Shown: positions 27,638 through 51,238, numbered from the stretch's first letter. The stretch is DNA of 64,000 bases from Acidobacteriota bacterium (GCA_008363385.1 RHKY01000034.1:14903-78902), one strand, 5' to 3'. Notes: generated from the sequence alone by a model not told the origin. Program-made: numbers and translations.

Positions 27638-27647
27638 CAGGGTCTCC

Positions 27648-28346: not shown

Positions 28347-28504
28347 CGATCGCTCCGGCTAGCTTCTTCTCGCGCTCCCTGCCGCCCGGTCACGACTCAA
28401 GAACGGCCTCCACCGGAGATGATACTGATAGTCCGGGTGCGTATCAACCGTATGCCGATAGACCGTCGCCGCATGAGCGGCAGCCCGGATAGGGTTCCTC
28501 GGCA

Positions 28505-28738
28505 GTGAAGCGCCATCCCGACCTGGTGGCCCTGGGTATCAGATTGCGCGAGCTGCGCGCAGCCCGCGGCTGGTCGCAAGAGGGTTTCGCACATCACTGC
28601 GGCCTCGATCGGACCTACTACGGCGGCATCGAGAGAGGCGAGCGCAACGTAGCGGTCGTCAACCTCCTGCGCATCGCCCGCTCGCTCGACGTGGAGGTTG
28701 GGGAGCTGTTCCGCCCGCCTGAATCCCGCGCGCGCTGA
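28505..28738 (+). CDS. XRE-family helix-turn-helix transcriptional regulator
   Basis: 77 aa, GTG start: LRELRAARGWSQEGFAHHCGLDRTYYGGIERGERNVAVVNLLRIARSLDVEVGELF is a canonical Cro/C1 HTH. Confidence 0.8.
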   Translation: MKRHPDLVALGIRLRELRAARGWSQEGFAHHCGLDRTYYGGIERGERNVAVVNLLRIARSLDVEVGELFRPPESRAR

Positions 28739-29317
28739 GCCGCAGTGTCGCTCCCGTAGGAGCAGGATGGGCCGCTTTCGCGTCACGCGGCTCGGGTCCC
28801 AGGCAGGAGGCAGTCGATCGGTCGACGTGCCGAGTCGTTCGTAGGTAAGCCCGAACTGCGCGGAGAGCCTTCCCGCAACGCCCCGCGGCCTGGCCCCGCC
28901 GCGACATCGGCTCAAAGCGCACGGTGAGGCGTGCCCGAGCGCTGGCAGCGCACTTGACGACTGTTCGAAAGCCCGGGTTCCGCACCCGCGCGGACTCGAC
29001 CTTGGCGACGCAGGACTGGCTCGGGACGATCTTCCGGGCCAGGTCTAGCTGGGAGAGGGCTTCCTCCTCCCCCCAGGACGACCGCCTCCCGCGTGGTCCT
29101 CATCTCGTCGAGGCGCTCCTCGACTGTTGTCCACAAACAAATAACCCCGCCCGAGGCCTTTCGGCTGGTCAGACGGGGAGGAAATCTAGAAGAGAGTATA
29201 GGCGCTCGCGGCGGCTCCCGCCGCGGGGCGGGACCTTAGCCGCTCTGCCGACCTCGCGCGGCGCCGAAGCGGCGGCGGCGGCGTGTCCGGCCTTCGGGCC
29301 CTATCAACTCCTCAGAT

Positions 29318-29480
29318 CACGCGAGTGGCGGGTGGCCTTGGCGTCGACGGCGAGGTGCCGGGAGTGCCGGGTGACCTTCGCAGCGATCCGCTTCGCCCGC
29401 CGGAGGGCCGCCGTCGCCTTGCCGAGCGCAAGCGTTAGGTCCCGAGAGTGACGGGTGACACGCGCGCCCGGTGATCCCGC
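29318..29480. repeat. three approximately 21-nt direct repeats at about 60-nt spacing, encoding a repeated (K/R)VTRHSR(D/H)L peptide if track ORF 29304..29609 (-) is translated
   Basis: On the plus strand: gcgagtggcgggtggcc / cgggagtgccgggtgacc / cgagagtgacgggtgacac. Confidence 0.5.
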
Positions 29481-29731
29481 TCGCTGGATAGCGGAGAGTG
29501 CACTACGCGCTGCCTGGACCGCAGTCCGAAGCGCCATGAGCTCCGCTTCGAGCACCCGGACGTCACGAGCGAGGGGATCGGGTCGGGGCTTCGTCCTCGC
29601 GGCTGGCATGCGTACCTCCGGTCTTCCGTTCAGCGCCTACACGGCTCGGAGCTCCGGCCGGCCGATTACGTGACGGGCCCCACCGCGTCTCCGTTCGGGA
29701 CTACTGCCCATCTCGGCGATCCGGGTCTCCG

Positions 29732-30481
29732 CTACAAGGGAAGCTGGACGAGGTAAGAGGCGCGCAGGGTGCAAGGCAAGGGATCTTGATCCGGGCAGTA
29801 GTACCGGATCCACGAGTTCACCGAAACCTGTGCGAGCGAGTCCGTCGGTCTCGTGTACCCGACGACCGTTCCGCAGACGGCTGTGATCGGAGCCGGGTCG
29901 CAACTCATCCTGCTGAGAGTGCGCCAGGAGCTGCTGCCGTCTCTCGCCGAGATCGTCACGACCGAGTTCCAGCCCGCCGGCCGCGTGTGCGCGGCCATGA
30001 CGGTCCACTCGTACTGTGGCATGCCAGACCCAACCGCCGGGCACGAAACCCTGAGACGGTGCCCCTCGGAGAAGTAGATGTCGAGGTCGGACCGGCAGTA
30101 TGAGGAGCCGCTATTCGGGCTCATGGAAGCCCAGTGAGGGCTAGGGCTTGGTCGTGACTCGCTGACCGCCGGACCGACTAACCGCGAGATCTCAGCTTCC
30201 GGCACTCGTACGATCGGGAGCGGAGACGGGAGATCCCTTGCCGACTCCTCCGCGTCTGCGAGCTCAGCTGTCGTCGAGCGACGCCCCAGAATCGCGAACC
30301 CCTCGGGCAGCGCCGCCGAGTCCGGGGCCAAGACCGTCCGCGTCGCCTCGTCAACGTACAGACGGGTCTCCGCTTCGGGCGGTCTGTCAGACTGGGGCAC
30401 CTCCGCCCCGAGACACGAAAGGCCTCCCGACAAGAGCAGCGTGGCCATGCCAACCAGCATCCCGACCGTTCTGAGATTCAT
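29732..30481 (-). CDS. secreted hypothetical protein (signal peptide, Cys-rich), lower GC
   Basis: C-terminal 249 aa of track ORF 29732..30868. Starts MNLRTVGMLVGMATLLLSGGLSC, with 8 Cys and W/Y-rich stretches. Local GC is about 62 % versus about 73 % for the genome. Confidence 0.6.
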   Translation of the reverse strand: MNLRTVGMLVGMATLLLSGGLSCLGAEVPQSDRPPEAETRLYVDEATRTVLAPDSAALPEGFAILGRRSTTAELADAEESARDLPSPLPIVRVPEAEISRLVGPAVSESRPSPSPHWASMSPNSGSSYCRSDLDIYFSEGHRLRVSCPAVGSGMPQYEWTVMAAHTRPAGWNSVVTISARDGSSSWRTLSRMSCDPAPITAVCGTVVGYTRPTDSLAQVSVNSWIRYYCPDQDPLPCTLRASYLVQLPL

Positions 30482-30504
30482 GTCGATCCTCTCTCCCGTT
30501 CGAC

Positions 30505-30843
30505 TCATCGTTCGGGGCCGCCGTACTTCCGTGGTATCGCAACCGACCTTACGGGCTGGGGGATCTCCGGCCCGCCCGGCCCCGCCTTGACGAGAAGGCC
30601 CGCGACGCGCGGGTCGCCCGCCGCCAGCGCGCCGCAGACTCCGCCGTAGCAGGTCCTCACCGTGGCCGACTCGGCCACGTTCAGCGTCTGGGCCTCGTCC
30701 CCCGGAGCGATCGAGAGGCGTGCCCCCTCGACGAGGAGCCGTTCCGAGGCGATCGGCCCCGAAACCTGCGCCGACACGAGCCCCGGCGCCGCGCCGAGGA
30801 GGGCGGCGAGGACCAGGATCGGCAGTCGGACGGGACGGGGCAT
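30505..30843 (-). CDS. small secreted hypothetical protein
   Basis: 112 aa starting MPRPVRLPILVLAALLGAAPGLVSAQ (a signal peptide), with a Cys pair (CYGGVC). Confidence 0.5.
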   Translation of the reverse strand: MPRPVRLPILVLAALLGAAPGLVSAQVSGPIASERLLVEGARLSIAPGDEAQTLNVAESATVRTCYGGVCGALAAGDPRVAGLLVKAGPGGPEIPQPVRSVAIPRKYGGPER

Positions 30844-30972
30844 GGTGCAGGCCAGGGCCGGAAGACACTCCTGCTTCGGTTCGAGGTCTGACGTTTGGAA
30901 CCGAAAGCGCGGTGGAGTCTATGGAGCAGAAGCCCGATTCGCAAGTAGTTCGTTTGATTCATCCCAGAGCCA

Positions 30973-31174
30973 GAACAAATACCGCAGGGCCAGCATGTCT
31001 CTTGGCGGGAGAAGGGACATGGGGCCGGAGGGCAGAACGTATAACGGAGCTCTGACCCCGCGCGAGCTTTCCTGATCCGAAACAAATACCGCACGGTCGG
31101 TGCCTCCCCTGGCGGGACAAGGGACAATGGGGCCATGGAACAGAACGTATAACGGAGCTCTGACCCTCCGCGAG
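30973..31174. repeat. imperfect tandem direct repeat, two copies of about 95 bp (30973-31066 and 31080-31174)
   Basis: Shared blocks: gaacaaataccgca ... tggcggga(g/c)aagggaca(t/at)ggggcc ... cagaacgtataacggagctctgacc ... cgcgag. An internal 15-nt segment is divergent. The repeat is AT-richer than its surroundings and lies in an intergenic region. Confidence 0.75.
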
Positions 31175-31231
31175 TGACCCTCCGCGTGCGGGTCCGGGTC
31201 CCGGCCTGATCCCCCGGCGCGGCCGGCTCCC

Positions 31232-38904: not shown

Positions 38905-41538
38905 TCACCGCACCCCCTTGGCGACCGCCAGCGAGCTCGACCCGCCTCGGAACCGCATCAGGAAGTAGCGCGCGTCGGTCGTGACGGTCAGGAACCCGTA
39001 GAGGCCGTGCGCCGACCCGCTCGGGCGCCACTCGAAGGCGGGCTCCCGGCGCCCGGTCGAGAGGTCCAGCCGCTCGACGCGGGCGGGGATCCTCCGGTCC
39101 CAGACGTAGACCGCGTCGCTCGCGGAGGACCAGGCGACGACGACCTCGCCCGCGACCGCGCCGGGGACCGCGCGGCTCGCGCCGTCGGCCGTCGCGAAGA
39201 GGGTCGGCGCCGCGCCGCCGGTCGCGCCGACCACCAGCCGGCCGTGCGGGGAGATCAGGAGCCAGCTCATCCCGGCCGGCGTCACCGGGCGCGGGGGCGC
39301 CCCCGCCTCGAGGTCGAAGACGTACCCGCGCGCCTCCTCGCCCTCGCGGCGGCCGAGGAAGGCGACGTGCCGCCCGTCGGCGGCGCACGTCACCCGGTGC
39401 GTGGTCGAGGCCTCGAGGACGACTCCCGAGAGGTCGAACGTCCGCGCCTCGCCCGGCCCGGTCGGGACGGCGCGCAGCTTCGTCCGGTCCCGCGTGTGGG
39501 TCGCCAGGAAGGCCCAGCGGCCGTCCGGCGTGATCCCCACCGCCGTCCCCGACCCGAGGCCGATCTGCGGGCCGGAGGCGCCCCGCCGGTAGTGCGCCCG
39601 GTACTCGCCCTGCTCCAGCAGGCCCCCGTCGGTCCCGACCACCACCGTGCCGTCCTCGGAGAGGCCGTCGACGGTGGCGCCGGTCAGGGCGCCCACGCCG
39701 AGCCTTGCCGGTCCCTCCGCGAGGCGTCCCTCGACGACGATCGGCAGCGAGTCGGCGGTCAGCAGGATCGTGCCGCTCTCGGCGACGTCGTGGAGGCGCG
39801 CGTTCGCCATCGTCCGCAGGACGGTGCGCGGCGGGCGGGACGGCGAGATGGCGGAGACGTAGCTCCCCTCGTCGGTCGACCCGTACGTGGTGAGGACCTC
39901 GGTCCCGTCCGCCGACCAGGCGACGCTGTGCATGAAGTTCAGCGTCTCGGAGAGCCTCGCGGGCTCGCCCGTCCCGTCGAGGACGGTGACGTGCCCCATG
40001 TCGTCGCCCGGGATCGGGTGCTCGACGAAGGCCACGCGGCGGCCGTCGCGAGAGATGCGGGGGGACGAGATCCAGCCGCGGGTGCGGAAGCGGACCGTTC
40101 CGATCGGGTACTCCAGACGCTGGCCGCCCTTGTCCGCGCGCACGACGGCGAAGCTCTGCCCGTCGGGCGCGATGTCGGCCTCGAAGATCCCCTCGAGGAG
40201 GGCGCGGGGGGCGCCGCCCGCGAGCGAGGCCTGCGCCAGGGTCCCGGTCCTCAGCCAGCTCCCCTCGTGGCGGCGGTCGAGGATCAGGGCCATCTCGCCG
40301 TTCTTCGCGATGCCGACGACGTCGGCGCTCGGCAGGTCGAGCCGGCGCGACGCGATGGCGTCGTCCCGCGTCGTCGACAGGAAGACCGGCTCTCCGGCGC
40401 GGGCCTCGCCGTAGACGATCGTCACGCCGTCGGGGGCGAAGCGCGCGGAGTGGACGAAGCCCTCCTCGGACGTGAGGAGGTGGTAGCTGGGCTCCGCGGC
40501 GGCGGCGGGACCCCGGAGGCGCGCGATCGCGAGCCCGGCCGCGAGGCCGAGCAGGAGGAACGCGGCGGCCCCCGCCGCCAGGAGGAGCCGTCGCCGGCGC
40601 GGCGCGGCGACCGTCCCGCCCGGCGCGGGCGCGGAGGCCTCGGCGGCGCCGCCCGAGGCGGCCTCGTCGAGGACGATCCGCGCGTCGGCGACGTCGTGCA
40701 GCCGGTTCCTCGGGTTCCGCTCCAGGCAGCGGCGCAGGAGCGAGAGGACGGCCGGGGGCGTGGCGGAAGGCAGCGCCGCCCAGTCGACCTCGGCGCGCAG
40801 GACCGCGGCGATCGTGTCGGAGACCGTCTCCCCCTCGAAGGGGCGCCTGCCGGCCAGCATCTCGTAGAGCAGGGCGCCGAAGGCCCAGACGTCTGCCCGC
40901 TTGTCGACCGCCCCGCCGCGCGCCTGCTCGGGCGACATGTAGGCGGCGGTGCCGAGGATGACGCCCATCGCGGTCCCGGGCGCGGTCAGCGTCGGCGAGT
41001 TCATCAGGGCCGGCGAGCGGAGGAGGTCGGCGGCGCCCGAGGACGACGGCGCCGCCGGGTCCATCGCCTTCGCCAGTCCGAAGTCGAGGACCTTCACCTT
41101 CCCGTCCGGCGTGACCTTGACGTTCGCGGGCTTCAGGTCCCGGTGGACGATCCCCTTCTCGTGCGCCTCCTCCAGCGCCTCGGCCACCTGCCGGGCGATC
41201 GAGAGGCACTCCGGGACGGGGAGGGCGCCCCGGGCGAGGCGGTCGGCGAGGGTGGGGCCCTCGACCAGCTCCATGACGAGCGCGTGCGCGTCGCCGCTCG
41301 TCTCCAGCCCGTAGACCTGGGCGACGTTCGGGTGGTTGAGCCGGGCCAGGAGCTGCGCCTCGCGCTGGAACCGGGCGAGGCGCTCGGCGTCCTGCGTGAA
41401 CGTCGCCGGCAGGACCTTGATCGCCACCTCGCGCCGGAGGCCGGTGTCCGTCGCCCGCCAGACCTCCCCCATCCCGCCGGCGCCGAGCTTCGCGGTGACC
41501 TCGTACGGCCCCAGCCGGGCGCCGGGGGCCAGGCTCAC
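38905..41538 (-). CDS. Ser/Thr protein kinase with C-terminal TolB-like (PD40/WD40-like) beta-propeller
   Basis: About 877 aa from a GTG (VSLAPGARLGPYEVTAKLGAGGMGEVWRA). Kinase motifs: AIKVL, HRDLKPANVKV, DFGLAK, GTAAYMSPEQ. A TM helix (LLLAAGAAAFLLLGLAAGLAI) is followed by propeller-like repeats (SRDGRRVAF, SADGTEV, TPDGRW). The start overlaps the upstream paralog's stop (GTGA). Confidence 0.8.
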   Translation of the reverse strand: MSLAPGARLGPYEVTAKLGAGGMGEVWRATDTGLRREVAIKVLPATFTQDAERLARFQREAQLLARLNHPNVAQVYGLETSGDAHALVMELVEGPTLADRLARGALPVPECLSIARQVAEALEEAHEKGIVHRDLKPANVKVTPDGKVKVLDFGLAKAMDPAAPSSSGAADLLRSPALMNSPTLTAPGTAMGVILGTAAYMSPEQARGGAVDKRADVWAFGALLYEMLAGRRPFEGETVSDTIAAVLRAEVDWAALPSATPPAVLSLLRRCLERNPRNRLHDVADARIVLDEAASGGAAEASAPAPGGTVAAPRRRRLLLAAGAAAFLLLGLAAGLAIARLRGPAAAAEPSYHLLTSEEGFVHSARFAPDGVTIVYGEARAGEPVFLSTTRDDAIASRRLDLPSADVVGIAKNGEMALILDRRHEGSWLRTGTLAQASLAGGAPRALLEGIFEADIAPDGQSFAVVRADKGGQRLEYPIGTVRFRTRGWISSPRISRDGRRVAFVEHPIPGDDMGHVTVLDGTGEPARLSETLNFMHSVAWSADGTEVLTTYGSTDEGSYVSAISPSRPPRTVLRTMANARLHDVAESGTILLTADSLPIVVEGRLAEGPARLGVGALTGATVDGLSEDGTVVVGTDGGLLEQGEYRAHYRRGASGPQIGLGSGTAVGITPDGRWAFLATHTRDRTKLRAVPTGPGEARTFDLSGVVLEASTTHRVTCAADGRHVAFLGRREGEEARGYVFDLEAGAPPRPVTPAGMSWLLISPHGRLVVGATGGAAPTLFATADGASRAVPGAVAGEVVVAWSSASDAVYVWDRRIPARVERLDLSTGRREPAFEWRPSGSAHGLYGFLTVTTDARYFLMRFRGGSSSLAVAKGVR

Positions 41539-44219
41539 GGCCTCACCTCGAGCTCGGCGAGCCAGACGTCCGACTCGTCGGCGCGCTCGTGCCAGGCGAG
41601 GTGGCGGCCGTCGCCCGCGAGCGCGGCCCGCACCATCCTCCAACCTTCCGAGGCGGTGACCAGGGTCCGGGCGCCGCCGCCCTCGACGTCGAGGATCGTC
41701 AGGGCTCGCGGCGTCACCGCGACGACTCGTCGACCGTCCGGCAGGAAGAGGAGCTGCGTCACCCCGTCCGCGCGGACCCGCCGGTACGACCGGTCCGCCA
41801 GGCCGTAGATCGCCGCACCGACGGGCGTGTTCGCCGGCGACTGGAGGATTCCGGCGAGCCGGCGCCCGTCGGGCGAGAACGAGAAGGGCCAGAACGCGAG
41901 CCCGCCCTCCCCGACCGGGGCCAGGGGCTCGGCGGGTCCCACCGCCCGCCCGTCCGCGATCTGGAGGCGGAACGGACCGTCCGTCCCGCTGGCCGCGAGC
42001 CATTGGCCGTCCGGCGACCAGACCGGGTTCCAGGCGCCCAGCTTCCGGCCGGTCGGGAGCCCGTGGAGGCCGCTTCCGTCGGGGCGGATCAGCGCGAGCT
42101 TGCTCGGCCAGCGGCTGGTCTGGAAGGCGATCCACGCCCCGTCGGGCGAGAAGGCGCCCTGGCGGTCGCGGTGCAGCCCCTCGGTCAGCTGCCGCAGGCC
42201 GCCCCCGGAGTCGGCGAGGAAGAGGTGCTGCGGCAGGCCGGCGTCGTCGAAGAGGAGCGTGCCGCCGTCGGGCGAGAGCGCGACCGATTCGTGGACCTCG
42301 AGGGTCCCGAGCGGTACCGCACGGGGCGTCCCGGTGATCGCGCCGGCGGACGGGTCGAACGACGCCACGCGGACCGCGGTGCGGGCGTTCCGGTCGAGGA
42401 AGGCGAGCCGCCGCCCGTCGGAGGAGGCCGAGAGGAAACCCGCCCAGCTCGAGGGCACGGTGACGGGCTGCGGCGCGCCGAGCGGACGGCCCGTCGCGCC
42501 GTCGACCGCGATCCGCCAGACGTTCATCGTCCCGCCACGGGTGCTCGAGAACAGGAGCGATCGGCCGTCCGGGGACCAGACCGGGCTCCAGTCGACCGGC
42601 GGGTCGTCGACCAGTCGCACCGCCGCGCCCTGAGCCGACTGGGAGCCGTCGGCGGCAACGGTGAAGAGGTCGCGGGCCGAGCTCGCCTCCTCGAGCCCCC
42701 AGAAGGCCACCCGCCGTCCGTCCGGCGACCAGCTCGGCTGCATGGCGTCGCGCCCCGAGAGGAGACGCCGCTCGCCGGTCTCGATCCGGACGGCCCAGAG
42801 GCGGCTCGTCGTCCCCCGGCCGAACGGGCTGTGCAGCTGCTCGTCGGCGACCGCGAGCTCGAGCCCGTCCGGCGACCAGGCCGGGTTGTAGCCGCGGTCG
42901 GTGATCTTCCGCGCGGACTCCCCGGTGGCGCCCATCACGAAGATCCCGCCGCCGGAGCACTCCGAGCGATAGGCGATCCTCTTCCCGTCGGGCGAGAAGG
43001 CGGGCTCGTCGTCGTCCTCGGCGCAGCCCGCGGTCAGGTTCACCGCGTTGCTGCCGCCGACGCGCTGCAGGAAGACGTCGCTCTGCCCGCCGACCTCCTT
43101 GACGTAGGCAAAGCTCTCGCCGTCCCGCGAGAGCGCCGGGGCCGACTCGCCTCCGGCGAGGAACGTCAGCTGGCGGAAGGCGGTCGGCTGGAGCGCCGTC
43201 GCCTCGGGAGCCGGGGCCCGCCGCGCGGGCCGGAGGACGGCCAGCGTCGCGAGAGCGCCGAGGAGGAAGACGGCCGCCCGGCCGGCCCACCGTCGCGCGG
43301 GGGCGGGAGCCGGGGCGCTCGGCGGCGCGACCGCCCGCGGAGAGGCCCCGCGTCCCGACAGGAGGTCCTCGAGGACGATGCGGGCGTCGGCGACGTCGTG
43401 GAGCCTCCGCCGCGGATCGCGCTCCAGGCAGCGGCGCAGGACGTCGGCGACCGGCGCCGGCAGGCCTGCCGGGAGGAGCGTCCAGTCCGGGTCGGCGCGC
43501 AGGACCGCGGCGAGCGTCTCGGCGACCGTCTCGCCCTCGAAGAGCTTCCTCCCGGTCAGCATCTCCCAGAGGACGACCCCGAAGGCCCAGACGTCGGCTC
43601 GCCGGTCCACCGGCTTCCCCTTCGCCTGCTCCGGGCTCATGTAGCCGGCCGTGCCGAGGATCACGCCGAGCCCGGTCGCGCCCTCGGTCAGGGTCGGCGA
43701 CTGCGCCAGCTGCGAGGCCGAGCCCGGCCCCGCGTCCACCGAGAGCGCCTTGGCCAGTCCGAAGTCGAGGACCTTGACCCTCCCGTCCGCGGTCACCTTC
43801 ACGTTCGCCGGCTTCAGGTCGCGGTGGACGATCCCCTTCTCGTGGGCCTCCTCGAGCGCCTCGGCGATCTGGAGCGCGGCGGACAGGGCCTCCTCGACGG
43901 GCAGCGGCCCCGCCTGGAGCCGCTCCTCGAGCGTCGGCCCCTCGACGAGCTCCATCACGAGGGCGCGGACGCCGTCCGACTCCTCGAGGCCGAAGACCGA
44001 GGCGACGTTGGAGTGGTGCAGCTGCGCCAGGAGCTGCGCCTCGCGCTCGAACCGGCGCAGCCGCTCGGGGTCGTTCGAGAGCGCGGCGGGGAGGACCTTG
44101 ATCGCCACCTCGCGCGAGAGGCGCGGGTCCCTCGCGCGGAAGACCTCCCCCATCCCGCCGGCGCCGAGCGGCGAGACGACCTCGTATGGCCCCAGCCGGA
44201 CGCCCGGGGCGATGTTCAC
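41535..44219 (-). CDS. Ser/Thr protein kinase with C-terminal TolB-like beta-propeller (paralog of 38905..41538)
   Basis: 894 aa starting MNIAPGVRLGPYEVVSPLGAGGMGEVFRA. The kinase motifs are the same, followed by a TM helix and PD40-like repeats (SPDGKRIAY, SPDGLELAV, SPDGRRVAF, SPDGRSLLF). Confidence 0.85.
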   Translation of the reverse strand: MNIAPGVRLGPYEVVSPLGAGGMGEVFRARDPRLSREVAIKVLPAALSNDPERLRRFEREAQLLAQLHHSNVASVFGLEESDGVRALVMELVEGPTLEERLQAGPLPVEEALSAALQIAEALEEAHEKGIVHRDLKPANVKVTADGRVKVLDFGLAKALSVDAGPGSASQLAQSPTLTEGATGLGVILGTAGYMSPEQAKGKPVDRRADVWAFGVVLWEMLTGRKLFEGETVAETLAAVLRADPDWTLLPAGLPAPVADVLRRCLERDPRRRLHDVADARIVLEDLLSGRGASPRAVAPPSAPAPAPARRWAGRAAVFLLGALATLAVLRPARRAPAPEATALQPTAFRQLTFLAGGESAPALSRDGESFAYVKEVGGQSDVFLQRVGGSNAVNLTAGCAEDDDEPAFSPDGKRIAYRSECSGGGIFVMGATGESARKITDRGYNPAWSPDGLELAVADEQLHSPFGRGTTSRLWAVRIETGERRLLSGRDAMQPSWSPDGRRVAFWGLEEASSARDLFTVAADGSQSAQGAAVRLVDDPPVDWSPVWSPDGRSLLFSSTRGGTMNVWRIAVDGATGRPLGAPQPVTVPSSWAGFLSASSDGRRLAFLDRNARTAVRVASFDPSAGAITGTPRAVPLGTLEVHESVALSPDGGTLLFDDAGLPQHLFLADSGGGLRQLTEGLHRDRQGAFSPDGAWIAFQTSRWPSKLALIRPDGSGLHGLPTGRKLGAWNPVWSPDGQWLAASGTDGPFRLQIADGRAVGPAEPLAPVGEGGLAFWPFSFSPDGRRLAGILQSPANTPVGAAIYGLADRSYRRVRADGVTQLLFLPDGRRVVAVTPRALTILDVEGGGARTLVTASEGWRMVRAALAGDGRHLAWHERADESDVWLAELEVRP

Positions 44220-44330
44220 GGGGCGGGTACCTCCTTGAGACGGAGTCTAACCTAGCGGTCGAGGCGCACCGTCGGTCTTCGCGCGGCTAACTCGCCGCGA
44301 GTCAGGGCGTACGCGTTGTCCGATCCGTGC

Positions 44331-47300
44331 TCAGCCCACTGTCGCCACGATCCGGAGGAGGGCGGGGCCGTAGCGGGCGGCGCGGGCGGGGCCGATGCCG
44401 GGGATCGCGAGGAGGTCGTCCTCGGTCCGGGGGCGGCTCGTCGCGATGGCGAGGAGCGTCTCGTCGGTGAAGACGCGGAAGGCGGGGACGCGCTGGCGCT
44501 TCGCCTCGGCGAGGCGGAAGAGGCGCAGCTCCTCGACGAGGGGCGGGGGGTCCGGCCTCACAGCCCTCCTCGCGGCCCTCGTGGCGCCGCCGGCCGGCTC
44601 GGCGCGCCTGCGGCCCGTCCGCTCCGGCTTCGGCAGCGCGGCCCTCGGCGCGCGGGCCTTGGCGCGCTTCTTCCCCGCGGCCGACGGGGGCGGGACGGCG
44701 ACGCGGGCCTCGACCTCGGCGTCCGGGTCGCGCCCGGCGCGGGTCAGGAAGGCCCTGCGGAACCGGATCGTCTTCCCGTCCTTCTCGAACTCGTCGTCCT
44801 CGATGGTGACGTGGCCGGCGCGCGCGAGGCCCCCGAGGAGGTCCTCGAAGGAGCGGCGGTCGACGGCGGGAAACTGCTTCTCGACCTCGCGGTGGAGCTG
44901 CCCGGTCCCCTGCCCGTCCTTCCACCGGAGGAGCTCGAGCGCGCGCCGGAGCGCCGCCTCCTCCATCGGGCTCGCCCGCCGGGTGCGCGTCGAGAGGCCC
45001 TCGCCCGGCGCGCAGACGTCGCAGACGCCGCACGCCGTCCCCGGGTCGGCCGTGTCGCCGAAATGCCGGACGAGCTGGAGCATCCGGCAGCTCGCCCCCT
45101 CGGCGAACCGCCGGACGAGAACGAGCTGCGTCTTCCGGAACTCCCGCTGCTCCTCGTACGGGCGCTTCCAGTCGGGCTTCCCGCGCGAGGCGAGCCCCTC
45201 GGGAGTGACGACGGCTCCCCCGAAGATCCAGAGCTTCTCGAGCGCCTTCTCGAACGTCTCCGGGTCGAGGCGCGAGCGGGAGGCGAGGTCCTCGCTCGGG
45301 AGCGAGTCCTCCCCGAGACGGGCGAAGACCCTCTCCAGGTCCGACGTCTCGGGGTAGTCCCGCGCGAGGAAGTGCTCGTGCATCCGCGTGTCGCCGTACG
45401 ACTGGAGGAGGATCGCGCGCGAGGGGAGGCCGTCCCGCCCGGCGCGTCCGATCTCCTGGTAGTAGCCCTCGACGCTCCCGGGGAGACCGGTGTGGACGAC
45501 GGTCCTCACGTCCGGCTTGTCGACCCCCATCCCGAAGGCGATCGTCGCCACGATCGCGTCGAGGCGCCCCTCCAGGAACGCCCGCTGCACCTCGTCGCGC
45601 TCCTTCGTCCCCATCCCGGCGTGGTAGGCCGCGGCGCGCGGGCGCGGCCGCAGGTGCTTCGCGAGCTCGGTCGCCTCGCGGCGCGTCGGCGTGTAGACGA
45701 TCGCCGGGAGGCGCGCGGGGTCCGCGAGGACCTCCCTCACCAGGTCCGCGCGCCGGCTGGGCGGGGCCTCCGTCACCTCGACCGCCAGGTTCGTCCGGCG
45801 GAAGCCGTGGATGAACCGGCCCGGCGCGATCAGCCCCAGCTGCGCGGCGATGTCCTCCTGGACGCGCGGCGTGGCCGTGGCGGTCAGCGCGATGACGGGC
45901 GCGGGGCGGAGCGCGGGGAGGCGCGCCCCGAGGAGCCGGTAGTCGGGTCTGAAGTCGTGCCCCCAGTGCGAGATGCAGTGCGCCTCGTCGACGGCGACGA
46001 GAGCGGGGGTCCGCTTCGCGAGCATCTCCGGGAACCCGGGGACCGAGAGCCGCTCGGGCGCGATGAAGAGGAGGTCGAGCTTCCCGTCGAGGTAGTCGCG
46101 GCAGACCTGCCTCGACTCGGCCCGGTCGCGCCCGGAGTGGATCCGCTCGGCGGCGAGGCCGAGGGCGCGGAGCTTGCCGACCTGGTCCTCCATCAGCGCG
46201 ATGAGCGGCGAGACGACGAGCGTCGTCCCCGCGCGGGCGAGGCCCGGCAGCTGGTAGCAGAGCGACTTTCCGGCCCCGGTCGGCATGACGAGGAGGGCGT
46301 CCTTCCCGGCGGTGACCGCGCGGCAGACGGCCTCCTGGTACGGCCGGAACGCGTCGTGGCCGAAGACGTCCTTCAGCAGCTCGCCGAGGCGCTCGGGCGA
46401 GACGGGCTTCCGCGCCGGCCGCTCGACGGCGAAGAGGTCGCCGGAGGAAGCCGGTCCCGCCGCCGCGGGCGCCGGCCTCGCGCGGGTCGATGCCGCGGCC
46501 GCGAGTGCCTGCGGGGCGCCCTCCGGGACGGGGCGCGGCGAAGCGCCCGGCGATCCCGCCGGCGGCTTCCCCGCCTCCCCGACCACCTCGCGGACGTACT
46601 CCTCGATCGAGGCCATGAAGGCCGGGAGCCTCGCCTCGCCCCGCTGGATCCGGGCCAGCTCCGCCTCCCAGCGGCCGGTCAGCGCCGGGCTCTTCACCGA
46701 CTCCGGGACGAGGCCGATCAGCCGGATCCCCTTGTCGGTGGCGACGAGGACCTTCCCGTCGCGCTGGAGGTACCCGCGCGCGATCAGCCCCTCCAGGATC
46801 TCGGCCCGCGTGGCCGGGGTGCCGAGGCCGTTCTCCTTCATCGCCTCGGCCAGCTCCTTCTCGTCGAGCGTCCTCCCGGCCGTCTCCATCGCGGTCAGGA
46901 GCGTGGCGTCGGTGAAGCGCTTCGGCGGCCGCGTCCTCCGCTCGACGGCCGAGGCCTCGACGACGCGCGGTCTCGTCCCGCGCGCGAGGCCCGGCGGGAG
47001 GGACGCGTCGTCGTCCGGCTCGCCGTCCTTCGTCCCCTCCCCGGCCTCCCCCTTCCCCTTCCGCCGAGAGGCCGGCTCGGGCTCGACGGCCCTCCAGCCG
47101 GCCTGCTCGGTCACCGTCCCGGTCGAGCGGAACCGGTCGACGAGGGCGCCCGCGCCCGCCCCGCTCGTGACCGCCGTGACGACCGTCGTCGTCGCGGCGA
47201 CGTGCTCGTCGTGCCAGGCCGCGACGAGCCGGCGGGCGACGAGGTCGTAGAGCGCCTGCTCCTCGGCGTCGAGGCCCCGCGGCGAGACCGGCGTCGGGAG

Positions 47301-48440
47301 GATCGCGTGGTGGTCGGTCACCCTCGCGTCGTCGACGAAGCGCGGCGGGATCGGCCTCTCGAGCGTCCCCGCCGCGAAGAGCGCCCCGTACGCCGGGGCG
47401 AGCGCGCGCATCACGTCCGGCAGCGTCGCGGCCACGTCGCGCGAGAGGTGGCGGCTGTCGGTCCGCGGGTAGGTGATCGCCTTCTTCTCCTCGTACAGCC
47501 GCTGGGCGACCTCGAGCGTCTTCTTCGCGCTCCACCCGAGGAGGCGGTTGGCGTGCCGCTGCAGCTCCGTCAGGTCGAAGAGGAGGGGTGCGGGCGTCCG
47601 CCGCGTCTTCGCCTCGACCGACTCGACCACGGCCTCGCCCGAGAGGACCCGCTCGACCACCCGCGCGGCCTCGGCGCCGTCCTTCGGCAGGCGCCGGCCG
47701 CCCTCCTCCTTCCTCGCCGGGTCGAACCAGGTCCCGCGGTACCGTCCCGCCTCCACGTCGAACGTCGCGACGACCTCCAGGTACTCCTCGGGGACGAACG
47801 CCCGGATCGACAGCTCGCGCTCGACGACCATCGCGAGCGTCGGCGTCTGGACGCGCCCGACCGTCAGCGTCTCGTCGTGGGCGAGCGTGAACGCCCGCGA
47901 GAAGTTCATCCCGACGAGCCAGTCGGCCCGGCTCCGCCCGCGCGCGGCGTCGGCCAGCCGGTCGTACTCGCTCGCGGGGCGCAGCCGCGCGAACCCGTCC
48001 CGGATCGCCTCCGGCGTCAGGGACGAGATCCAGAGCCGCTTCACCGGCTTCGCGCACCCGGCCGCCTCGTACAGCTGCCGGAAGATCAGCTCCCCTTCCC
48101 GCCCCGCGTCCGTCGCGCAGATCACCTCGGTCACGTGCGGGTCGCGGAGGACCTTCGCGACGGCCTCGAACTGCTCCTTCACGCGGTCGGTCACGACGAG
48201 CGGCCAGCTCGAGGGGAGGATCGGGAGGTGCTCGCGCCGCCAGGCCTTCCACTCCGGGCGGATCTCGTGCGGCTGGGCCAGCGCGACGAGGTGCCCGATC
48301 GCCCACGTCACGACGTGCCCGTCCCCGACGAGGCACCCCTCGCCCCGGCGCGTGGCGCCGAGGACGGCCGCCAGGTCGCGCGCCACGGAGGGCTTCTCGG
48401 CCACGACGGCCACGAGGCCGGAGGCTTGGCTCCTCGTCAT
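44331..48440 (-). CDS. fusion protein: type IA DNA topoisomerase (TopoIII/TopB-like) N-terminal half + RecQ-family helicase with HRDC-like C-terminus
   Basis: A single uninterrupted frame. The Toprim domain is VAVVAEKPSVARDLAAVLG, with the acidic TDAGREGE motif. The catalytic tyrosine context is ITYPRTDSRHLS. A Pro/Ala-rich linker follows, then RecQ motifs: FGHDAFRPYQ, LLVMPTGAGKSLCYQLP, VDEAHCISHWGHDFRP, LTATAT, a Zn/RQC-like TACGVCDVC, and an HRDC-like tail (LRLFRLAEAKRQRVPAFRVFTDETLLAIA). The probable start is the ATG at 48440 (MTRSQASGLVAVV); the track ORF extends to 48638. No in-frame start codon precedes the RecQ part. Confidence 0.75.
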   Translation of the reverse strand: MTRSQASGLVAVVAEKPSVARDLAAVLGATRRGEGCLVGDGHVVTWAIGHLVALAQPHEIRPEWKAWRREHLPILPSSWPLVVTDRVKEQFEAVAKVLRDPHVTEVICATDAGREGELIFRQLYEAAGCAKPVKRLWISSLTPEAIRDGFARLRPASEYDRLADAARGRSRADWLVGMNFSRAFTLAHDETLTVGRVQTPTLAMVVERELSIRAFVPEEYLEVVATFDVEAGRYRGTWFDPARKEEGGRRLPKDGAEAARVVERVLSGEAVVESVEAKTRRTPAPLLFDLTELQRHANRLLGWSAKKTLEVAQRLYEEKKAITYPRTDSRHLSRDVAATLPDVMRALAPAYGALFAAGTLERPIPPRFVDDARVTDHHAILPTPVSPRGLDAEEQALYDLVARRLVAAWHDEHVAATTTVVTAVTSGAGAGALVDRFRSTGTVTEQAGWRAVEPEPASRRKGKGEAGEGTKDGEPDDDASLPPGLARGTRPRVVEASAVERRTRPPKRFTDATLLTAMETAGRTLDEKELAEAMKENGLGTPATRAEILEGLIARGYLQRDGKVLVATDKGIRLIGLVPESVKSPALTGRWEAELARIQRGEARLPAFMASIEEYVREVVGEAGKPPAGSPGASPRPVPEGAPQALAAAASTRARPAPAAAGPASSGDLFAVERPARKPVSPERLGELLKDVFGHDAFRPYQEAVCRAVTAGKDALLVMPTGAGKSLCYQLPGLARAGTTLVVSPLIALMEDQVGKLRALGLAAERIHSGRDRAESRQVCRDYLDGKLDLLFIAPERLSVPGFPEMLAKRTPALVAVDEAHCISHWGHDFRPDYRLLGARLPALRPAPVIALTATATPRVQEDIAAQLGLIAPGRFIHGFRRTNLAVEVTEAPPSRRADLVREVLADPARLPAIVYTPTRREATELAKHLRPRPRAAAYHAGMGTKERDEVQRAFLEGRLDAIVATIAFGMGVDKPDVRTVVHTGLPGSVEGYYQEIGRAGRDGLPSRAILLQSYGDTRMHEHFLARDYPETSDLERVFARLGEDSLPSEDLASRSRLDPETFEKALEKLWIFGGAVVTPEGLASRGKPDWKRPYEEQREFRKTQLVLVRRFAEGASCRMLQLVRHFGDTADPGTACGVCDVCAPGEGLSTRTRRASPMEEAALRRALELLRWKDGQGTGQLHREVEKQFPAVDRRSFEDLLGGLARAGHVTIEDDEFEKDGKTIRFRRAFLTRAGRDPDAEVEARVAVPPPSAAGKKRAKARAPRAALPKPERTGRRRAEPAGGATRAARRAVRPDPPPLVEELRLFRLAEAKRQRVPAFRVFTDETLLAIATSRPRTEDDLLAIPGIGPARAARYGPALLRIVATVG

Positions 48441-48539
48441 CGGACGGGGATGTGTACGCCCCGCCGCGCCCCGGCGCAAGGGCCGGCCGGGGGCGGCCCC
48501 CGAGGCGAGGGACCAGCTCCGAGCCGCTATCATCTCCCC

Positions 48540-48770
48540 ATGGCAGGTGCCGGTTCCGGCCGGGAGTTCGACGTCGTCATCGAGCGGGACGAGGAGGGTT
48601 GGTACGTCGCCTCCGTGCCGGCCCTTCGGGGCTGTCACACGCAGGCCCGTTCGCTCGACGAGCTTCGCGAGCGGATCCTCGAGGCGATCGAGCTCTGCCT
48701 CGAGGTGGAAGGCCCTGCCCCGTCACCCCTCGAGTTCGTCGGCATCCAGCGCGTCCGGCTCGCGTCGTGA
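48540..48770 (+). CDS. HicB-like / UPF0150-family antitoxin-like protein (orphan)
   Basis: 76 aa: MAGAGSGREFDVVIERDEEGWYVASVPALRGCHTQARSLDELRERILEAIELCLEV. This is the tail of the otherwise artefactual track ORF 44316..48770. Confidence 0.6.
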   Translation: MAGAGSGREFDVVIERDEEGWYVASVPALRGCHTQARSLDELRERILEAIELCLEVEGPAPSPLEFVGIQRVRLAS

Positions 48771-48839: not shown

Positions 48840-49895
48840 TCAGCCCGCAGCGCGACTCGCGGCGGGCTGCCCCGTCTCCAGCCTCCCGGCGAAGCTGCGG
48901 TAGAGGAAGACGAAGTAGCCGGTCACGAGGAGCATCCCGGGGACCCACCACGCGAGCGCCGTGCGCAGGCCCGGCGCGGCCGAGGCCGCGTCGAAGACGG
49001 TGAGGCTCCGGGCCGGGTCGAGGTTCGACGGCAGGACGTTCGGGAAGAGGGCGAAGGCCGTCGCCCCGAGGAGCCCGACGAGGAAGAGGCACGACCCGAG
49101 GAACGCCGCGACGTCCGCGCCGCCCGCGCTCTTCCACCGCGCCAGGACGAGGCCCGCCACCGCCAGCGCGGGGAGGACCCACCCCTCCGGGTGCGCCGCC
49201 AGCCGCTCCGGGATCAGCGGCTGGATCGAGAACGTGGCGACCGTGGACGCGATCCCGAGGACGACCGTCGCCCCCCACGCCCACCGCGCCGCCCGCCGCG
49301 CCCGCTCGGCCAGCTCCCCCGTCGTCTTCATCGCCGCCCAGAGGGCGCCGTGCCCCGCGAGCGCCGAGAGCGCGAAGAGGCCGGCCGTGAGCGTGTACCA
49401 GTCGACGAATCCCGCGTGCGGCGTCAGGCGGAAGGTCGTCCAGAGCGGGACGAAGAAGTGCCCCGAGGCGTCGAGCGGGACGCCCCTCACGACGTTCCCG
49501 AGGGCGAGGCCCAGGCAGAGGGCCAGGAGCGCGCTCGACACCGAGAAGACGGTGTCCCAGAACGGCTGCCAGACGGGGTGGTGGACGTGGTTGCGGAACT
49601 CCATGGCGATCCCGCGCCCCATCAGCAGCCAGAGGACGATCATCAGCGGCAGGAAGAAGCCCGAGAAGGCCGCGGCGTAGAGCGCCGGGAAGGCCATGAA
49701 GAGTGCGGCCCCCGCGCCGATCAGCCAGACCTCGTTCCCGTCCCAGACCGGCCCGATCGTGGCGAGGAGCGTCCTCCGCTCCGCCTCGTCGCACGGCAGG
49801 AGGAGGTGGAGCGCGCCGACGCCCAGGTCGAAGCCGTCGAGGACGACGTAGGCGGCGAGCATGAAGCCGACGAGGACGAACCAGACGGTCTCCAT
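48840..49895 (-). CDS. cydB: cytochrome bd ubiquinol oxidase subunit II
   Basis: C-terminal 351 aa of track ORF 48840..51653. Starts METVWFVLVGFMLAAYVVLDGFDLGVGAL, a multi-TM CydB. The start overlaps the cydA stop. Confidence 0.85.
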   Translation of the reverse strand: METVWFVLVGFMLAAYVVLDGFDLGVGALHLLLPCDEAERRTLLATIGPVWDGNEVWLIGAGAALFMAFPALYAAAFSGFFLPLMIVLWLLMGRGIAMEFRNHVHHPVWQPFWDTVFSVSSALLALCLGLALGNVVRGVPLDASGHFFVPLWTTFRLTPHAGFVDWYTLTAGLFALSALAGHGALWAAMKTTGELAERARRAARWAWGATVVLGIASTVATFSIQPLIPERLAAHPEGWVLPALAVAGLVLARWKSAGGADVAAFLGSCLFLVGLLGATAFALFPNVLPSNLDPARSLTVFDAASAAPGLRTALAWWVPGMLLVTGYFVFLYRSFAGRLETGQPAASRAAG

Positions 49896-51238
49896 CACCG
49901 GCCCCCTTCCGCGGCAGGAGCCGGCTCCGGCCCGTGCTCCACCTCGCGGGCGAAGAGGAAGAGCGTCAGGATCCCGAGGAGCGCGTACATCCCCATGAAC
50001 CCGAGGAGGACGAAGAGGCCGTTTCCCGCCGAGACGTTCGGCGAGGCTCCGGCCGCCGTCCGCAGGAGGCCGTGGACGAGCCACGGCTGCCTCCCCAGCT
50101 CGGCCGTCATCCACCCGGCGGTGTTGGCGATGTACGGGAACGGGATCGTCAGCGCCAGGAGCCAGAGCGCCGGTCGCGTCGAGAAGAGCTTTCCCCGGAA
50201 GAGGAGGAAGGCCGAGAGCGCCATGACCGCGATGAAGACCGTCCCGAGACCGACCATCACGTGGTAGCTGTAGTAGAGGAGCGGGACGTTGTCGGGCCAG
50301 TCCTCGCGCGGGAAGGCGTCGAGCCCCTTCACCTCGGCCTTCCACCGGTTGTACGTCAGGAAGGAGAGGAGCCGCGGCACCTCGATCGGGTTGTCCAGGC
50401 GCAGCTTCTCCATGTCGGGCTGGCCGATCAGCGCGAGCGGCGCGCCGTGCTCGGTCCGGAAGAGGCCTTCCATCGCGGCGAGCGTCGCCGGCTGGTACCG
50501 GGCCACGTTCTTCCCCTGCGCGTCGCCGGTCGGGAACGCCATGACGACCGAGGCGGCGAGCCCCGCCGGGACCGCGACTCTGAGGAACGTCTTCCCGTAC
50601 TCCTCGGCGCGGCCGGAGAGGAGGTAGAACGCCCCGATCCCGGCCACGACGAAGGAGGCGGTGACGACCGACCCTGCCATCGCGTGGAGGTACTGCCACG
50701 GGAGCCACGGGTTCGTGAAGAGGGCCGAGAGGCTCTCGAGCTGGACGTTCCCCGCCGCGTCGACGCGGTACCCGACCGGGTGCTGCATCCAGGCGTTGGT
50801 CGCGACGATGAACCAGCCCGACAGCCACGTCCCGGCGAAGAGCATCCAGGCCGAGAGCGTGTGGACGCGCCTCGGGACCTTCCCCTCGCCGTAGAGGAAG
50901 ACCCCGAGGGCCACCGACTCCAGGAAGAACGAGAAGACCCCTTCCATCGCCAGCGTCTGGCCGATCACGCCCCCCGCGTACCGCGAGAAGAGCGACCAGC
51001 TCGTCCCGAACTGGAACTCCAGCGGGATCCCCGTGACGACCCCCATCGCGAAGTTCAGGCCGAAGATCCGCGCCCAGAAGCGCGCCGCCCGGCCGTAGTG
51101 GGGGTCGCTCCTCCGGGCCTCGAGCGTCTTGAAGACGACGATCAGGAGCGTCAGCCCCATCGTCAGCTGAGGGAAGAGGTAGTGGTACGTCGCCGTGAAG
51201 GCGAAGGTGAGGCGGTGGACGGTCAGCGCCGAGTCCAT
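49895..51238 (-). CDS. cydA: cytochrome bd ubiquinol oxidase subunit I
   Basis: 447 aa starting MDSALTVHRLTFAFTATYHYLFPQLTMGLT, with the conserved Q-loop region GWMTAELGRQPW. Confidence 0.9.
   Translation of the reverse strand: MDSALTVHRLTFAFTATYHYLFPQLTMGLTLLIVVFKTLEARRSDPHYGRAARFWARIFGLNFAMGVVTGIPLEFQFGTSWSLFSRYAGGVIGQTLAMEGVFSFFLESVALGVFLYGEGKVPRRVHTLSAWMLFAGTWLSGWFIVATNAWMQHPVGYRVDAAGNVQLESLSALFTNPWLPWQYLHAMAGSVVTASFVVAGIGAFYLLSGRAEEYGKTFLRVAVPAGLAASVVMAFPTGDAQGKNVARYQPATLAAMEGLFRTEHGAPLALIGQPDMEKLRLDNPIEVPRLLSFLTYNRWKAEVKGLDAFPREDWPDNVPLLYYSYHVMVGLGTVFIAVMALSAFLLFRGKLFSTRPALWLLALTIPFPYIANTAGWMTAELGRQPWLVHGLLRTAAGASPNVSAGNGLFVLLGFMGMYALLGILTLFLFAREVEHGPEPAPAAEGGR

Follow-up and report, generated by a model that had tools for sequence, protein, structure and literature searches.

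A topoisomerase III–RecQ helicase fusion encoded by a single gene is widespread in Acidobacteriota and Myxococcota

The DNA analysed here is a stretch of 64,000 nucleotides from an Acidobacteriota bacterium (the window), whose minus strand carries, at 44331..48440, a gene of 1,369 codons followed by a stop (44331-44333), as read from the ORF list and the translation. All features described below lie on this strand, which the first-pass annotation had left unstated. The longest ORF over the gene is 44331..48638, and the ATG at 48440 is the likely start of a protein of 1,369 amino acids (aa), which has the same length and sequence as NCBI MDL1948808.1. Two further frames across this stretch likewise lack stop codons, over 1,344 and 1,484 codons, in DNA of 75% GC, and ORF length by itself is therefore no proof of coding. 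GC3, however, lies at 0.92-1.0 in all 50-codon blocks of the claimed frame, including those of the linker described below, against 0.65-0.84 and 0.39-0.76 in the two competing frames, and by this comparison the claimed frame is the coding frame. From the N- to the C-terminus, Pfam identified a Toprim domain, a type IA topoisomerase core, DEAD and Helicase_C domains, a RecQ zinc-binding region and an HRDC domain. Next to the gene lie cydAB and Ser/Thr kinase genes. We read the fusion as a real gene of the chromosome that encodes a single polypeptide.

The N-terminal half opens with the Toprim domain (aa 11-140; 48021..48410; Pfam PF01751, 39.7 bits), in which E15 and K16 align with E7 and K8 of Escherichia coli Topo III, and the metal-site motif D111-A-G113-R-E115-G-E117 aligns with D103-P-D105-R-E107. 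The first-pass annotation had held that a topoisomerase half without its Toprim acidic residues would speak against a fusion enzyme. D111, E115 and E117 are kept, but the second Asp of the canonical DxDxE cluster is replaced by Gly113. Of 24 fused homologues, 22 share the resulting DxGxE, as do 11 of 13 stand-alone relatives; we therefore take it as a trait of the whole subfamily and not as decay, and this Toprim is probably a functional variant. The topoisomerase core, domains II-IV, occupies aa 158-609 (46614..47969; Pfam PF01131, Topoisom_bac, E=4.6e-106). Its ITYPRTDS sequence, already singled out in the first pass as the site of the catalytic tyrosine, aligns with the LITYPRSD motif of E. 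coli Topo III (catalytic Tyr328), placing the tyrosine at Y324 (codon 47469..47471); Y324, P325, R326 and T327 were invariant in 103 sequences. Unlike Topo I, Topo III has a decatenation loop in its domain IV. The equivalent of this loop (aa 520-536; 46833..46883) aligns with one gap to residues ~502-519 of E. coli Topo III, and its G522, L525 and L530 were invariant in the same 103 sequences; the E. coli enzyme has its own loop, and the role of that loop has been described (PMC4109787). In the AF2 model, pLDDT is ~95 across aa 10-620, and Foldseek comparison with E. coli Topo III (1D6M, 2O19, 1I7D) gave target-normalised TM values of 0.80-0.84, so that this half is modelled with the toroidal four-domain Topo III fold. 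The NCBIfam cutoffs for TopB were also passed (NF005829, 657.6 vs 597; TIGR01056 topB, 573.8 vs 515.75). By its sequence, the half is a complete bacterial topoisomerase III, with a predicted activity of the decatenase type.

The C-terminal half contains a RecQ helicase core of two RecA-like lobes (aa 699-1004; 45429..46346; Pfam DEAD at aa 699-862 and Helicase_C at aa 912-1004). Motif 0 (FRPYQ), Walker A (PTGAGKS), the DEAH sequence with the aromatic loop (DEAHCISHWGHDFRPDY), LTATAT and motif VI (QEIGRAGRDG) are all present, and these SF2 motifs, together with the aromatic-rich loop, were invariant in the 103 sequences. The score for the subfamily model TIGR00614 recQ_fam was above its cutoff (387.2 vs 219.8), whereas that for the strict RecQ equivalog TIGR01389 was under it (472.3 vs 640.2); by the NCBI criterion, this half is classed as a RecQ-family member and not as a canonical RecQ orthologue. 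The profile check that had been suggested for each half thus came out in favour of both, the curated thresholds for TopB and for the RecQ family being passed. Between helicase lobe 2 and the zinc-binding cysteines lies an extra helix-helix-helix-strand-strand module of ~60 aa (aa ~1030-1088; 45177..45353), whose secondary structure is predicted by AF2 with pLDDT >90. In the alignment, aa ~1020-1092 have no counterpart in E. coli RecQ, and the spacing ahead of the cysteines is the same in stand-alone members of this RecQ subfamily. The zinc-binding region itself (aa 1096-1143; 45012..45155; Pfam PF16124, 29.8 bits vs 25) carries C1118, C1137, C1140 and C1143, which align with the Cys cluster of E. 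coli RecQ and were invariant in all 103 sequences. A winged-helix (RQC-like) domain is predicted at aa ~1158-1232 (44745..44969) from the AF2 fold of the RecQ half, three helices and then a beta-hairpin with pLDDT >90; Pfam RQC had no match in the fusion protein. A basic, Arg/Lys/Ala/Pro-rich and mostly disordered spacer follows (aa ~1240-1298; 44547..44723; pLDDT <50 at aa 1273-1292), and the protein ends in an HRDC domain (aa 1301-1365; 44346..44540; Pfam PF00570, 68.7 bits vs a cutoff of 23.8), modelled as a helical bundle with pLDDT ~90. Pfam matches to DEAD, Helicase_C, RecQ_Zn_bind and HRDC agree with the first-pass description of a full RecQ with an HRDC tail, and the AlphaFold model of this half resembles E. 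coli RecQ with confidence. The extra zinc-domain module and the divergent winged helix may give it a substrate preference that differs from that of E. coli RecQ.

The two enzymes are joined by a Pro/Ala/Gly/Ser-rich linker of ~60 aa, which lies at aa ~625-686 (46383..46568) and not at about 46450-46750, where it had first been placed. The linker is disordered (pLDDT <50 at aa 630-672 in AF2), varies from 29 to 148 aa across 103 homologues (median 63), and has a column identity of 0.23 in the same homologues, compared with 0.7-0.8 for the domains. The AF2 model had a pTM of 0.59, although its pLDDT was 89.6. The disorder, variable length and low conservation of the linker, and the low pTM against a high pLDDT, suggest that it is a tether and not a rigid interface; the model points to a flexible connection between two confident halves. 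Confident contact between the halves is absent from the AF2 model, and allosteric coupling is thus unsupported. With regard to the earlier statement that RecQ has no start of its own, this stands for the linker, which contains no in-frame ATG, GTG or TTG. The only such codons within aa 600-720 are ATG609 and GTG619, which fall in the final helix of the topoisomerase domain, and ATG719, which falls in Walker A.

The same fusion was found in >200 database proteins and at ~24 genome loci (51-88% identity), in Acidobacteriota (Thermoanaerobaculia, Holophagales, Terriglobia) and Myxococcota. All 120 of the 120 best matches to our query had this architecture, a Myxococcaceae query retrieved 120 more fusion proteins, and the architecture recurs in dozens of clusters formed at 50% identity, with members as low as ~39% identity. 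Several of the loci lie on Mb-scale contigs. The fusion is therefore widespread in two soil/sediment phyla, and the rarity implied by the first-pass annotation does not hold. Its central claim, a true single-polypeptide fusion and not two adjacent genes, is upheld by the recurrence of the architecture in both phyla and by the invariance of catalytic residues. Its concern about an assembly artefact is answered by uninterrupted fusions in independently assembled contigs and by GC3 that continues through the linker, and re-sequencing is unwarranted: public databases already contain the fusion, where its only label, "DNA topoisomerase 3", is uninformative. Catalytic residues of both halves were invariant in the 103 sequences (Y324, R326, D111, E115, E117, K725, D818-E-A-H, R999, R1002 and the four Cys), which indicates that both activities are under purifying selection. 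In a crude tree, the topoisomerase halves of all fusions formed one clade apart from stand-alone Topo IIIs. Stand-alone RecQs of the same subfamily were interleaved with the fused ones, and fusion is therefore not obligatory for this RecQ lineage. No conserved neighbour gene was found across 20 fusion loci, and no plasmid or phage record covered at least 80% of the fusion protein.

We consider it fairly probable that the fusion is a single-chain form of the RecQ-Topo III partnership, a bacterial counterpart of the BLM/Sgs1-Top3-Rmi1 dissolvasome, with its activities, substrates and coupling all predicted. The RecQ half would recognise DNA structure through its winged-helix, HRDC and zinc domains and, as an ATP-driven 3'-5' motor, load on forks, D-loops, Holliday junctions or late replication intermediates and expose ssDNA. 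The tethered Topo III half would bind the exposed strand, cleave it via Tyr324 with the Toprim metal site, and lead a second strand through the gate with the help of its decatenation loop; since it possesses this loop itself, we propose that no RMI1-like factor would be needed. Hemicatenanes, converging forks or double Holliday junctions would in this way be unlinked without crossovers, and the tether would hold the two enzymes at 1:1 stoichiometry and keep the topoisomerase locally at high concentration wherever the helicase makes its substrate. Double-Holliday-junction dissolution or decatenation by such a self-contained machine is a plausible prediction. Cooperation between RecQ and Topo III has been summarised elsewhere (PMC7245102; PMC2647321), and no description of a TopoIII-RecQ fusion was found in the literature searched. 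Several observations count against the single-chain reading: the DxGxE Toprim motif, the RecQ equivalog score below its cutoff, the extra zinc-domain module and divergent winged helix, and the stand-alone RecQs among the fused ones.

The two halves could also have been fused for co-expression or stoichiometry only, with Topo III acting as a general decatenase and RecQ in recombination, and without the two being mechanistically coupled on one DNA molecule. The long, disordered and poorly conserved linker (29-148 aa), the lack of a fixed interface in AF2 (pTM 0.59) and the interleaved stand-alone RecQs are in line with such an arrangement. We nevertheless think it unlikely, given that the fusion is kept across two phyla down to ~39% identity, that the fused topoisomerase halves are a clade distinct from stand-alone Topo IIIs, and that RecQ and Topo III are established partners, encoded by neighbouring genes in Listeria. 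At the other extreme, the fusion might be a self-sufficient single-chain dissolvasome, standing in for separate RecQ and TopB proteins across much of Acidobacteriota/Myxococcota, in which the helicase ATPase cycle gates strand passage, making it an ATP-directed type IA topoisomerase of an origin independent of reverse gyrase and of opposite domain order. We see only a slim chance of this; if the ATPase-gated reading were true, the fusion would offer the simplest natural system for resolving helicase-topo IA communication structurally, a question that is open for BLM-TOP3A.

A directional, ATP-driven type IA topoisomerase that introduces supercoils rather than merely unlinking DNA, in effect a mesophilic and convergent analogue of reverse gyrase, appears improbable to us; it would be consistent with the presence of helicase and topo IA in one chain, as in reverse gyrase, and with reports that RecQ with Topo III alters plasmid topology in vitro (PMC7245102). 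Even less probable is a role in anti-phage defence or in mobile elements, for example as the DpdF-like helicase of a Dpd 7-deazaguanine modification/restriction system or as a conjugative-element Topo III. The PADLOC sub-model PDLC02865 'DpdF' (1,499 positions) matches aa 5-1289 with 1,641.9 bits, conjugative plasmids commonly carry Topo III genes, and a Type IV restriction-like gene lies ~20 kb away within the window. Yet the NCBIfam DpdF equivalog NF041063 scored 212.7 against a cutoff of 550, over the helicase core only, and no Dpd partner turned up when 9 large window ORFs and 10 neighbours at 6 related loci (transporters, lectins, methyltransferases and similar) were examined. The adjoining cydAB and kinase genes, the lack of a conserved neighbour over the 20 loci and the lack of plasmid or phage records of that coverage also speak against it. 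Finally, that a stop codon was lost through an assembly or sequencing error, or that two proteins arise via an internal start (GTG619, with GAGGAG ~12 nt upstream) or linker proteolysis, is very improbable, although a few related loci (L019, L033 and L048) are frameshifted. The uninterrupted fusion recurs across hundreds of contigs that were assembled independently, in different studies and from different phyla, GC3 is unbroken over the junction, the linker lacks a start codon, and the frameshifted loci are the minority, all from MAGs.

Among known systems, identity with a Dpd defence protein was rejected, since no Dpd partners occur at the loci examined and NF041063 is below its cutoff; the PDLC02865 profile was evidently built from proteins with the fusion architecture, and its 'DpdF' label probably arose as a side effect of clustering by homology. 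Reverse gyrase is likewise a single polypeptide, the sole helicase-topo IA fusion described in the literature searched, and has been called unique in this respect by one paper. As the first-pass annotation had pointed out, its domain order is opposite, the fusion having topo IA N-terminal and the helicase C-terminal, and its helicase is not a RecQ; with TIGR01054 at 94.9 bits vs a cutoff of 471.7, identity with reverse gyrase was also rejected. In Listeria monocytogenes, the recQ and topoisomerase III genes adjoin on one strand, 23 nt apart, which supports a functional link in bacteria; there they are separate genes with ~40% identity to the fusion, and recQ precedes topo III, the opposite of the fusion. 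E. coli RecQ and TopB belong to the same families but are separate proteins, in contrast to the covalent Topo(N)-RecQ(C) arrangement. Residues 4-610 of E. coli Topo III align with the topoisomerase half, catalytic Tyr and decatenation loop included, and residues 15-346 of E. coli RecQ align with the helicase core, as do the zinc cysteines, so that the same chemistry would be expected: ssDNA made by the helicase and strand passage by topo IA. Unlike the E. coli pair, the fusion has a DxGxE Toprim, the extra ~60-aa zinc-domain module, no Pfam RQC match and a score short of the RecQ equivalog cutoff; where E. coli Topo III ends in a lysine-rich C-terminal tail, the fusion has the linker and RecQ. 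In the eukaryotic dissolvasome (BLM/Sgs1 - Top3alpha/Top3 - RMI1), TopoIIIalpha binds non-covalently to the N-terminal region of BLM/Sgs1 and receives a decatenation loop in trans from RMI1 (PMC4109787). The fusion differs in having no RMI1-like OB-fold partner and a topoisomerase half of the bacterial Topo III lineage, not of Top3alpha; its covalent N-terminal linker is analogous in topology, and it carries the loop in cis.

The reading frame that the first-pass annotation had assigned to the TopoIII–RecQ fusion is a real ORF on the minus strand. At its longest, the ORF runs from 48638 to 44331 (−), and the start codon is likely the ATG at 48440, which gives 1,369 codons plus a stop. A protein in NCBI nr, MDL1948808.1 (“DNA topoisomerase III [Acidobacteria bacterium ACD]”), matches the fusion exactly in sequence and length. 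The window has a GC content of about 74–75%, and ORF length is no evidence here because long chance ORFs occur in several frames at ~74% GC. Two such shadow ORFs (1,344 and 1,484 codons; 44302–48336 on the minus strand and 44316–48770 on the plus strand) overlap the fusion gene in other frames; they are high-GC artefacts that would mislead naive ORF calling. The coding frame was instead identified from third-position GC (GC3), which is 0.92–1.0 in each 50-codon block of the fusion frame, linker included, versus 0.65–0.84 and 0.39–0.76 in the two other frames, and the domain matches agree. A scan for promoters and terminators between 44000 and 49000 found none and is uninformative at 75% GC.

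Six Pfam domains were found along the protein: Toprim (aa 11–140), Topoisom_bac (aa 158–609, E=5e-106), DEAD (aa 699–862), Helicase_C (aa 912–1004), RecQ_Zn_bind (aa 1096–1143), and HRDC (aa 1301–1365). With the curated NCBIfam models, the N-terminal half exceeded two TopB thresholds; the C-terminal half scored over the RecQ-family threshold and under the strict RecQ equivalog threshold. Judged by these profiles, each half belongs to a known family, TopB for the N-terminal half and the wider RecQ family, short of the equivalog, for the C-terminal half. The catalytic tyrosine predicted within ITYPRTDS is present (Y324), and the Pro/Ala-rich linker between the halves was also borne out, although it lies at window 46383–46568 rather than at 46450–46750. 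As had been claimed, the linker contains no in-frame start from which RecQ could be translated separately; the nearest are ATG609 and GTG619, in the last helix of the topo half, and ATG719, in Walker A. The expectation of intact Toprim acidic residues stood only in part, since the motif reads D-A-G-R-E and not DxDxE, whereas D111, E115, and E117 are conserved across homologues. The DxGxE form was found in 22 of 24 fused proteins and in 11 of 13 stand-alone relatives and, being common to both groups, represents a subfamily trait and not decay. When 103 fused proteins were aligned, the catalytic residues of both enzymes were invariant or nearly so. These comprise E15/K16, D111, E115, E117, Y324, and R326 in the topo half, and G722/K725/S726, D818-E-A-H, the aromatic loop W826–P832, Q995...R999...R1002, and the four zinc cysteines in the RecQ half.

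The topo half could be aligned to E. coli Topo III over residues 4–610, and the decatenation loop has its full-length counterpart at aa 520–536. It also carries a highly charged loop rich in Lys, Glu, Asp, and Gly (aa 455–490; window ~46971–47078, minus strand), which exceeds its E. coli Topo III counterpart by about 15 aa and for which disorder is predicted (pLDDT <50 at 463–477). The helicase core aligned to E. coli RecQ residues 15–346 and is followed by ~70 residues without a counterpart in E. coli RecQ, and then by the zinc cysteines. An AlphaFold2 model of aa 1–1200, built with a 103-sequence alignment as input, had a mean pLDDT of 89.6 and a pTM of 0.59, with pLDDT <50 at aa 630–672. 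The high pLDDT, the low pTM, and the disordered segment together indicate two confident bodies whose relative position is not fixed. When modelled alone, the RecQ half reached a pTM of 0.85 and showed an extra helix-helix-helix-hairpin module (~1030–1088) within the zinc domain, a winged-helix-like domain (1158–1232), a disordered basic spacer, and the HRDC bundle. In the homologues, linker length varies from 29 to 148 aa (median 63), P, A, G, and S are abundant in it, and its column identity is 0.23 compared with 0.7–0.8 in the domains. By these predictions the linker is a flexible tether.

A survey of related genomes, which the first-pass annotation had suggested, showed that the same fusion recurs in Acidobacteriota and Myxococcota. 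All of the best 120 database matches (1,304–1,519 aa, 57–83% identity) share the six-domain architecture, and several lie on contigs of 2–7 Mb; a Myxococcaceae homologue used as query returned at least 120 further fusions. When one genome was scanned for each GTDB species, ~24 loci carried the single-ORF fusion, all of them from MAGs, with carriers in Thermoanaerobaculia, Holophagales, and Terriglobia (Acidobacteriota) and in Polyangiaceae, Archangiaceae, Myxococcaceae, and Anaeromyxobacter (Myxococcota). In three further loci, all MAGs as well, the frame is split (L019, 9926–14152; L033, 599–4904; L048, 9971–13829), reflecting either frameshift errors or pseudogenisation. Dozens of distinct representatives in the 50%-identity library cover both halves, down to ~39% identity, and Pfam confirmed the architecture in the divergent ones tested, with HRDC absent from some. 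No record among 72,556 plasmids and 50,697 phages covered at least 80% of the protein by tblastn. The matches there were separate Topo III or RecQ genes only, and a plasmid or phage origin was rejected on this search.

The history of the two halves was approached with crude neighbour-joining (NJ) trees based on BLOSUM distances and lacking support values, which served only to distinguish fused topo halves from stand-alone ones, not for counting how often fusion or fission occurred. Every fused topo half fell into one clade, distinct from the nearest stand-alone Topo IIIs (Riflebacteria, Methylomirabilis, and Desulfovibrionaceae; 36–45% identical), a pattern consistent with a single origin of the fused topo half. 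In the equally crude RecQ tree, genuinely unfused RecQs of the same subfamily (46–61% identity) branched among the fusions; they have the same C-terminal architecture, insertion included. This interleaving suggests either that the topo half was later lost or that the fusion was repeated, and an NJ tree without support values decides for neither. The only cultured match, Polyangium jinanense SDU13 (L036), has an unfused RecQ of this subfamily in two copies (305–1984 and 8135–9814) that lie ~7.8 kb apart, give identical tblastn statistics, and are each 62% identical to fusion aa 685–1247. No topo half was present within the 12 kb stretch examined, and the closest relatives of these RecQs in the crude NJ tree are fused Polyangium proteins. 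In another library protein (P0344, 1,400 aa), a RecQ of this subfamily, 55% identical to the RecQ half of the fusion, is preceded by a Ser/Thr kinase domain and eight Sel1 repeats; on its domain content, this is a different N-terminal partner for the same RecQ lineage.

The fusion gene is flanked by cydAB and two Ser/Thr-kinase/PD40 genes. Upstream, on the same strand, lies the cytochrome bd oxidase operon (cydA, 49895–51238; cydB, 48840–49886; both minus). In the interval between cydB and the fusion, an opposite-strand ORF of 76 aa (48540–48770, plus) encodes a HicB-like antitoxin domain (PF15919, 28.6 bits, cutoff 27). It overlaps the stretch of the longest ORF that lies upstream of the likely start, and no HicA-like partner was seen. 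Directly downstream are two tandem Ser/Thr kinase genes with PD40/TolB-like beta-propeller C-termini (38905–44219, minus); their kinase domain matches many PADLOC PD-T4-6 models, probably through generic kinase similarity. An all-against-all comparison of 20 fused loci revealed no conserved neighbour, such as SSB or an RMI1-like OB-fold protein, except the ubiquitous Ser/Thr kinase family, and the sampled neighbours are unrelated housekeeping or accessory genes. A search of the window for a recQ or topB paralogue found none, only a weak 25% match (23761–24477) that falls within a Type IV restriction-like helicase gene. This large ORF (22588–25722, minus), ~20 kb from the fusion, is covered almost end to end by a match to PADLOC mREase_IV (Type IV methyl-directed restriction enzyme), at 771 bits. 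The adjoining region, ~25700–31200, has a GC content of 0.69–0.715 compared with 0.74–0.77 elsewhere, contains no ORF with a strong GC3 signal and no Rfam match, and may be a horizontally acquired island.

RecQ helicases partner with type IA topoisomerases across all domains of life; in humans, Bloom syndrome results when the pair is lost. With a real gene, conserved active sites in both halves, and two folds joined by a disordered tether, the best-supported reading is that the fusion is a single-chain RecQ–Topo III machine, whose activities, substrates, and coupling we infer. The RecQ half would recognise branched DNA and expose single strands, and the tethered Topo III, which needs ssDNA, would pass strands with its own decatenation loop, so that hemicatenanes, converging forks, or double Holliday junctions would be unlinked. 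The fusion would not need RMI1, the protein that provides TopoIIIα with a decatenation loop in trans (PMC4109787).

Among the alternatives, the one that survives best, although we regard it as unlikely, is that the halves act independently and are fused for stoichiometry only. That the protein is an ATP-directed supercoiling enzyme in the manner of reverse gyrase appears a good deal less probable; reverse gyrase as a family was rejected by the NCBIfam thresholds, and the original distinction of this combination from reverse gyrase holds. A role in defence or in mobile elements, which we consider slightly more improbable still, was raised because a PADLOC “DpdF” sub-model (PDLC02865, 1,499 positions) matches aa 5–1289 at 1,642 bits. 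However, the score with the curated NCBIfam DpdF model was far under cutoff, and no Dpd partner was found among nine large ORFs of the window or among ten neighbours of the fusion in six related loci. We therefore rejected assignment to Dpd or another defence system, as the PADLOC match lacks support from gene context; PDLC02865 is in effect a TopoIII–RecQ fusion profile and could give misleading defence-system calls. Least probable of all is that the fusion is artefactual or that the cell makes two separate proteins from it. Recurrence in hundreds of independent contigs and continuous GC3 rule out a misassembly or lost stop codon and uphold the first-pass annotation of a true fusion.

Returning to the single-chain machine, both enzyme families are known, the sequences themselves are already public, and the finding is not categorically new. 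Public names of the proteins (“DNA topoisomerase 3” or “RecQ family helicase” only) hide the fusion architecture. In the open-access full-text literature searched, we found no description of a natural TopoIII–RecQ fusion, an earlier mention elsewhere being possible. In their phylogenomic review, Forterre and Gadelle name no fusions other than reverse gyrase and Topo V (PMC2647321). According to a 2020 PNAS paper, it is “uniquely” hyperthermophiles that have fused these units, via reverse gyrase (PMC7245102), a statement that the TopoIII–RecQ fusion contradicts. What bacterial Topo III does physiologically is still described as poorly defined in PMC13244152. The fusion provides “Rosetta-stone” evidence that both enzymes work together in vivo in bacteria. 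Contact or mutual regulation between helicase and topoisomerase modules is an open question (PMC4109787). For cryo-EM, single-molecule, and biochemical work on whether the modules communicate, the fusion would offer a tractable one-polypeptide, RMI1-free model of coupled unwinding and strand passage at fixed stoichiometry, and the fused and unfused RecQ lineages, mixed as they are in the tree, amount to natural experiments on the contribution of the tether. It should interest topoisomerase and recombination specialists.

A related arrangement occurs in Listeria monocytogenes (L080, 4010–7959, NZ_LR134400.1), where recQ and the topoisomerase III gene are adjacent on the same strand, 23 nt apart. 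PLSDB lists this 594-kb record as a “plasmid”, yet chromosomal genes, guaB and pbpD1 among them, are present on it. The Listeria adjacency is independent neighbourhood evidence that both functions belong together in bacteria, although the two are separate genes and recQ comes first, the reverse of the order in the fusion. In eukaryotes, Top3 is bound to the N-terminal region of BLM/Sgs1 (PMC4109787), and the layout of the fusion mirrors this placement of Top3 at the N-terminal side of the helicase.
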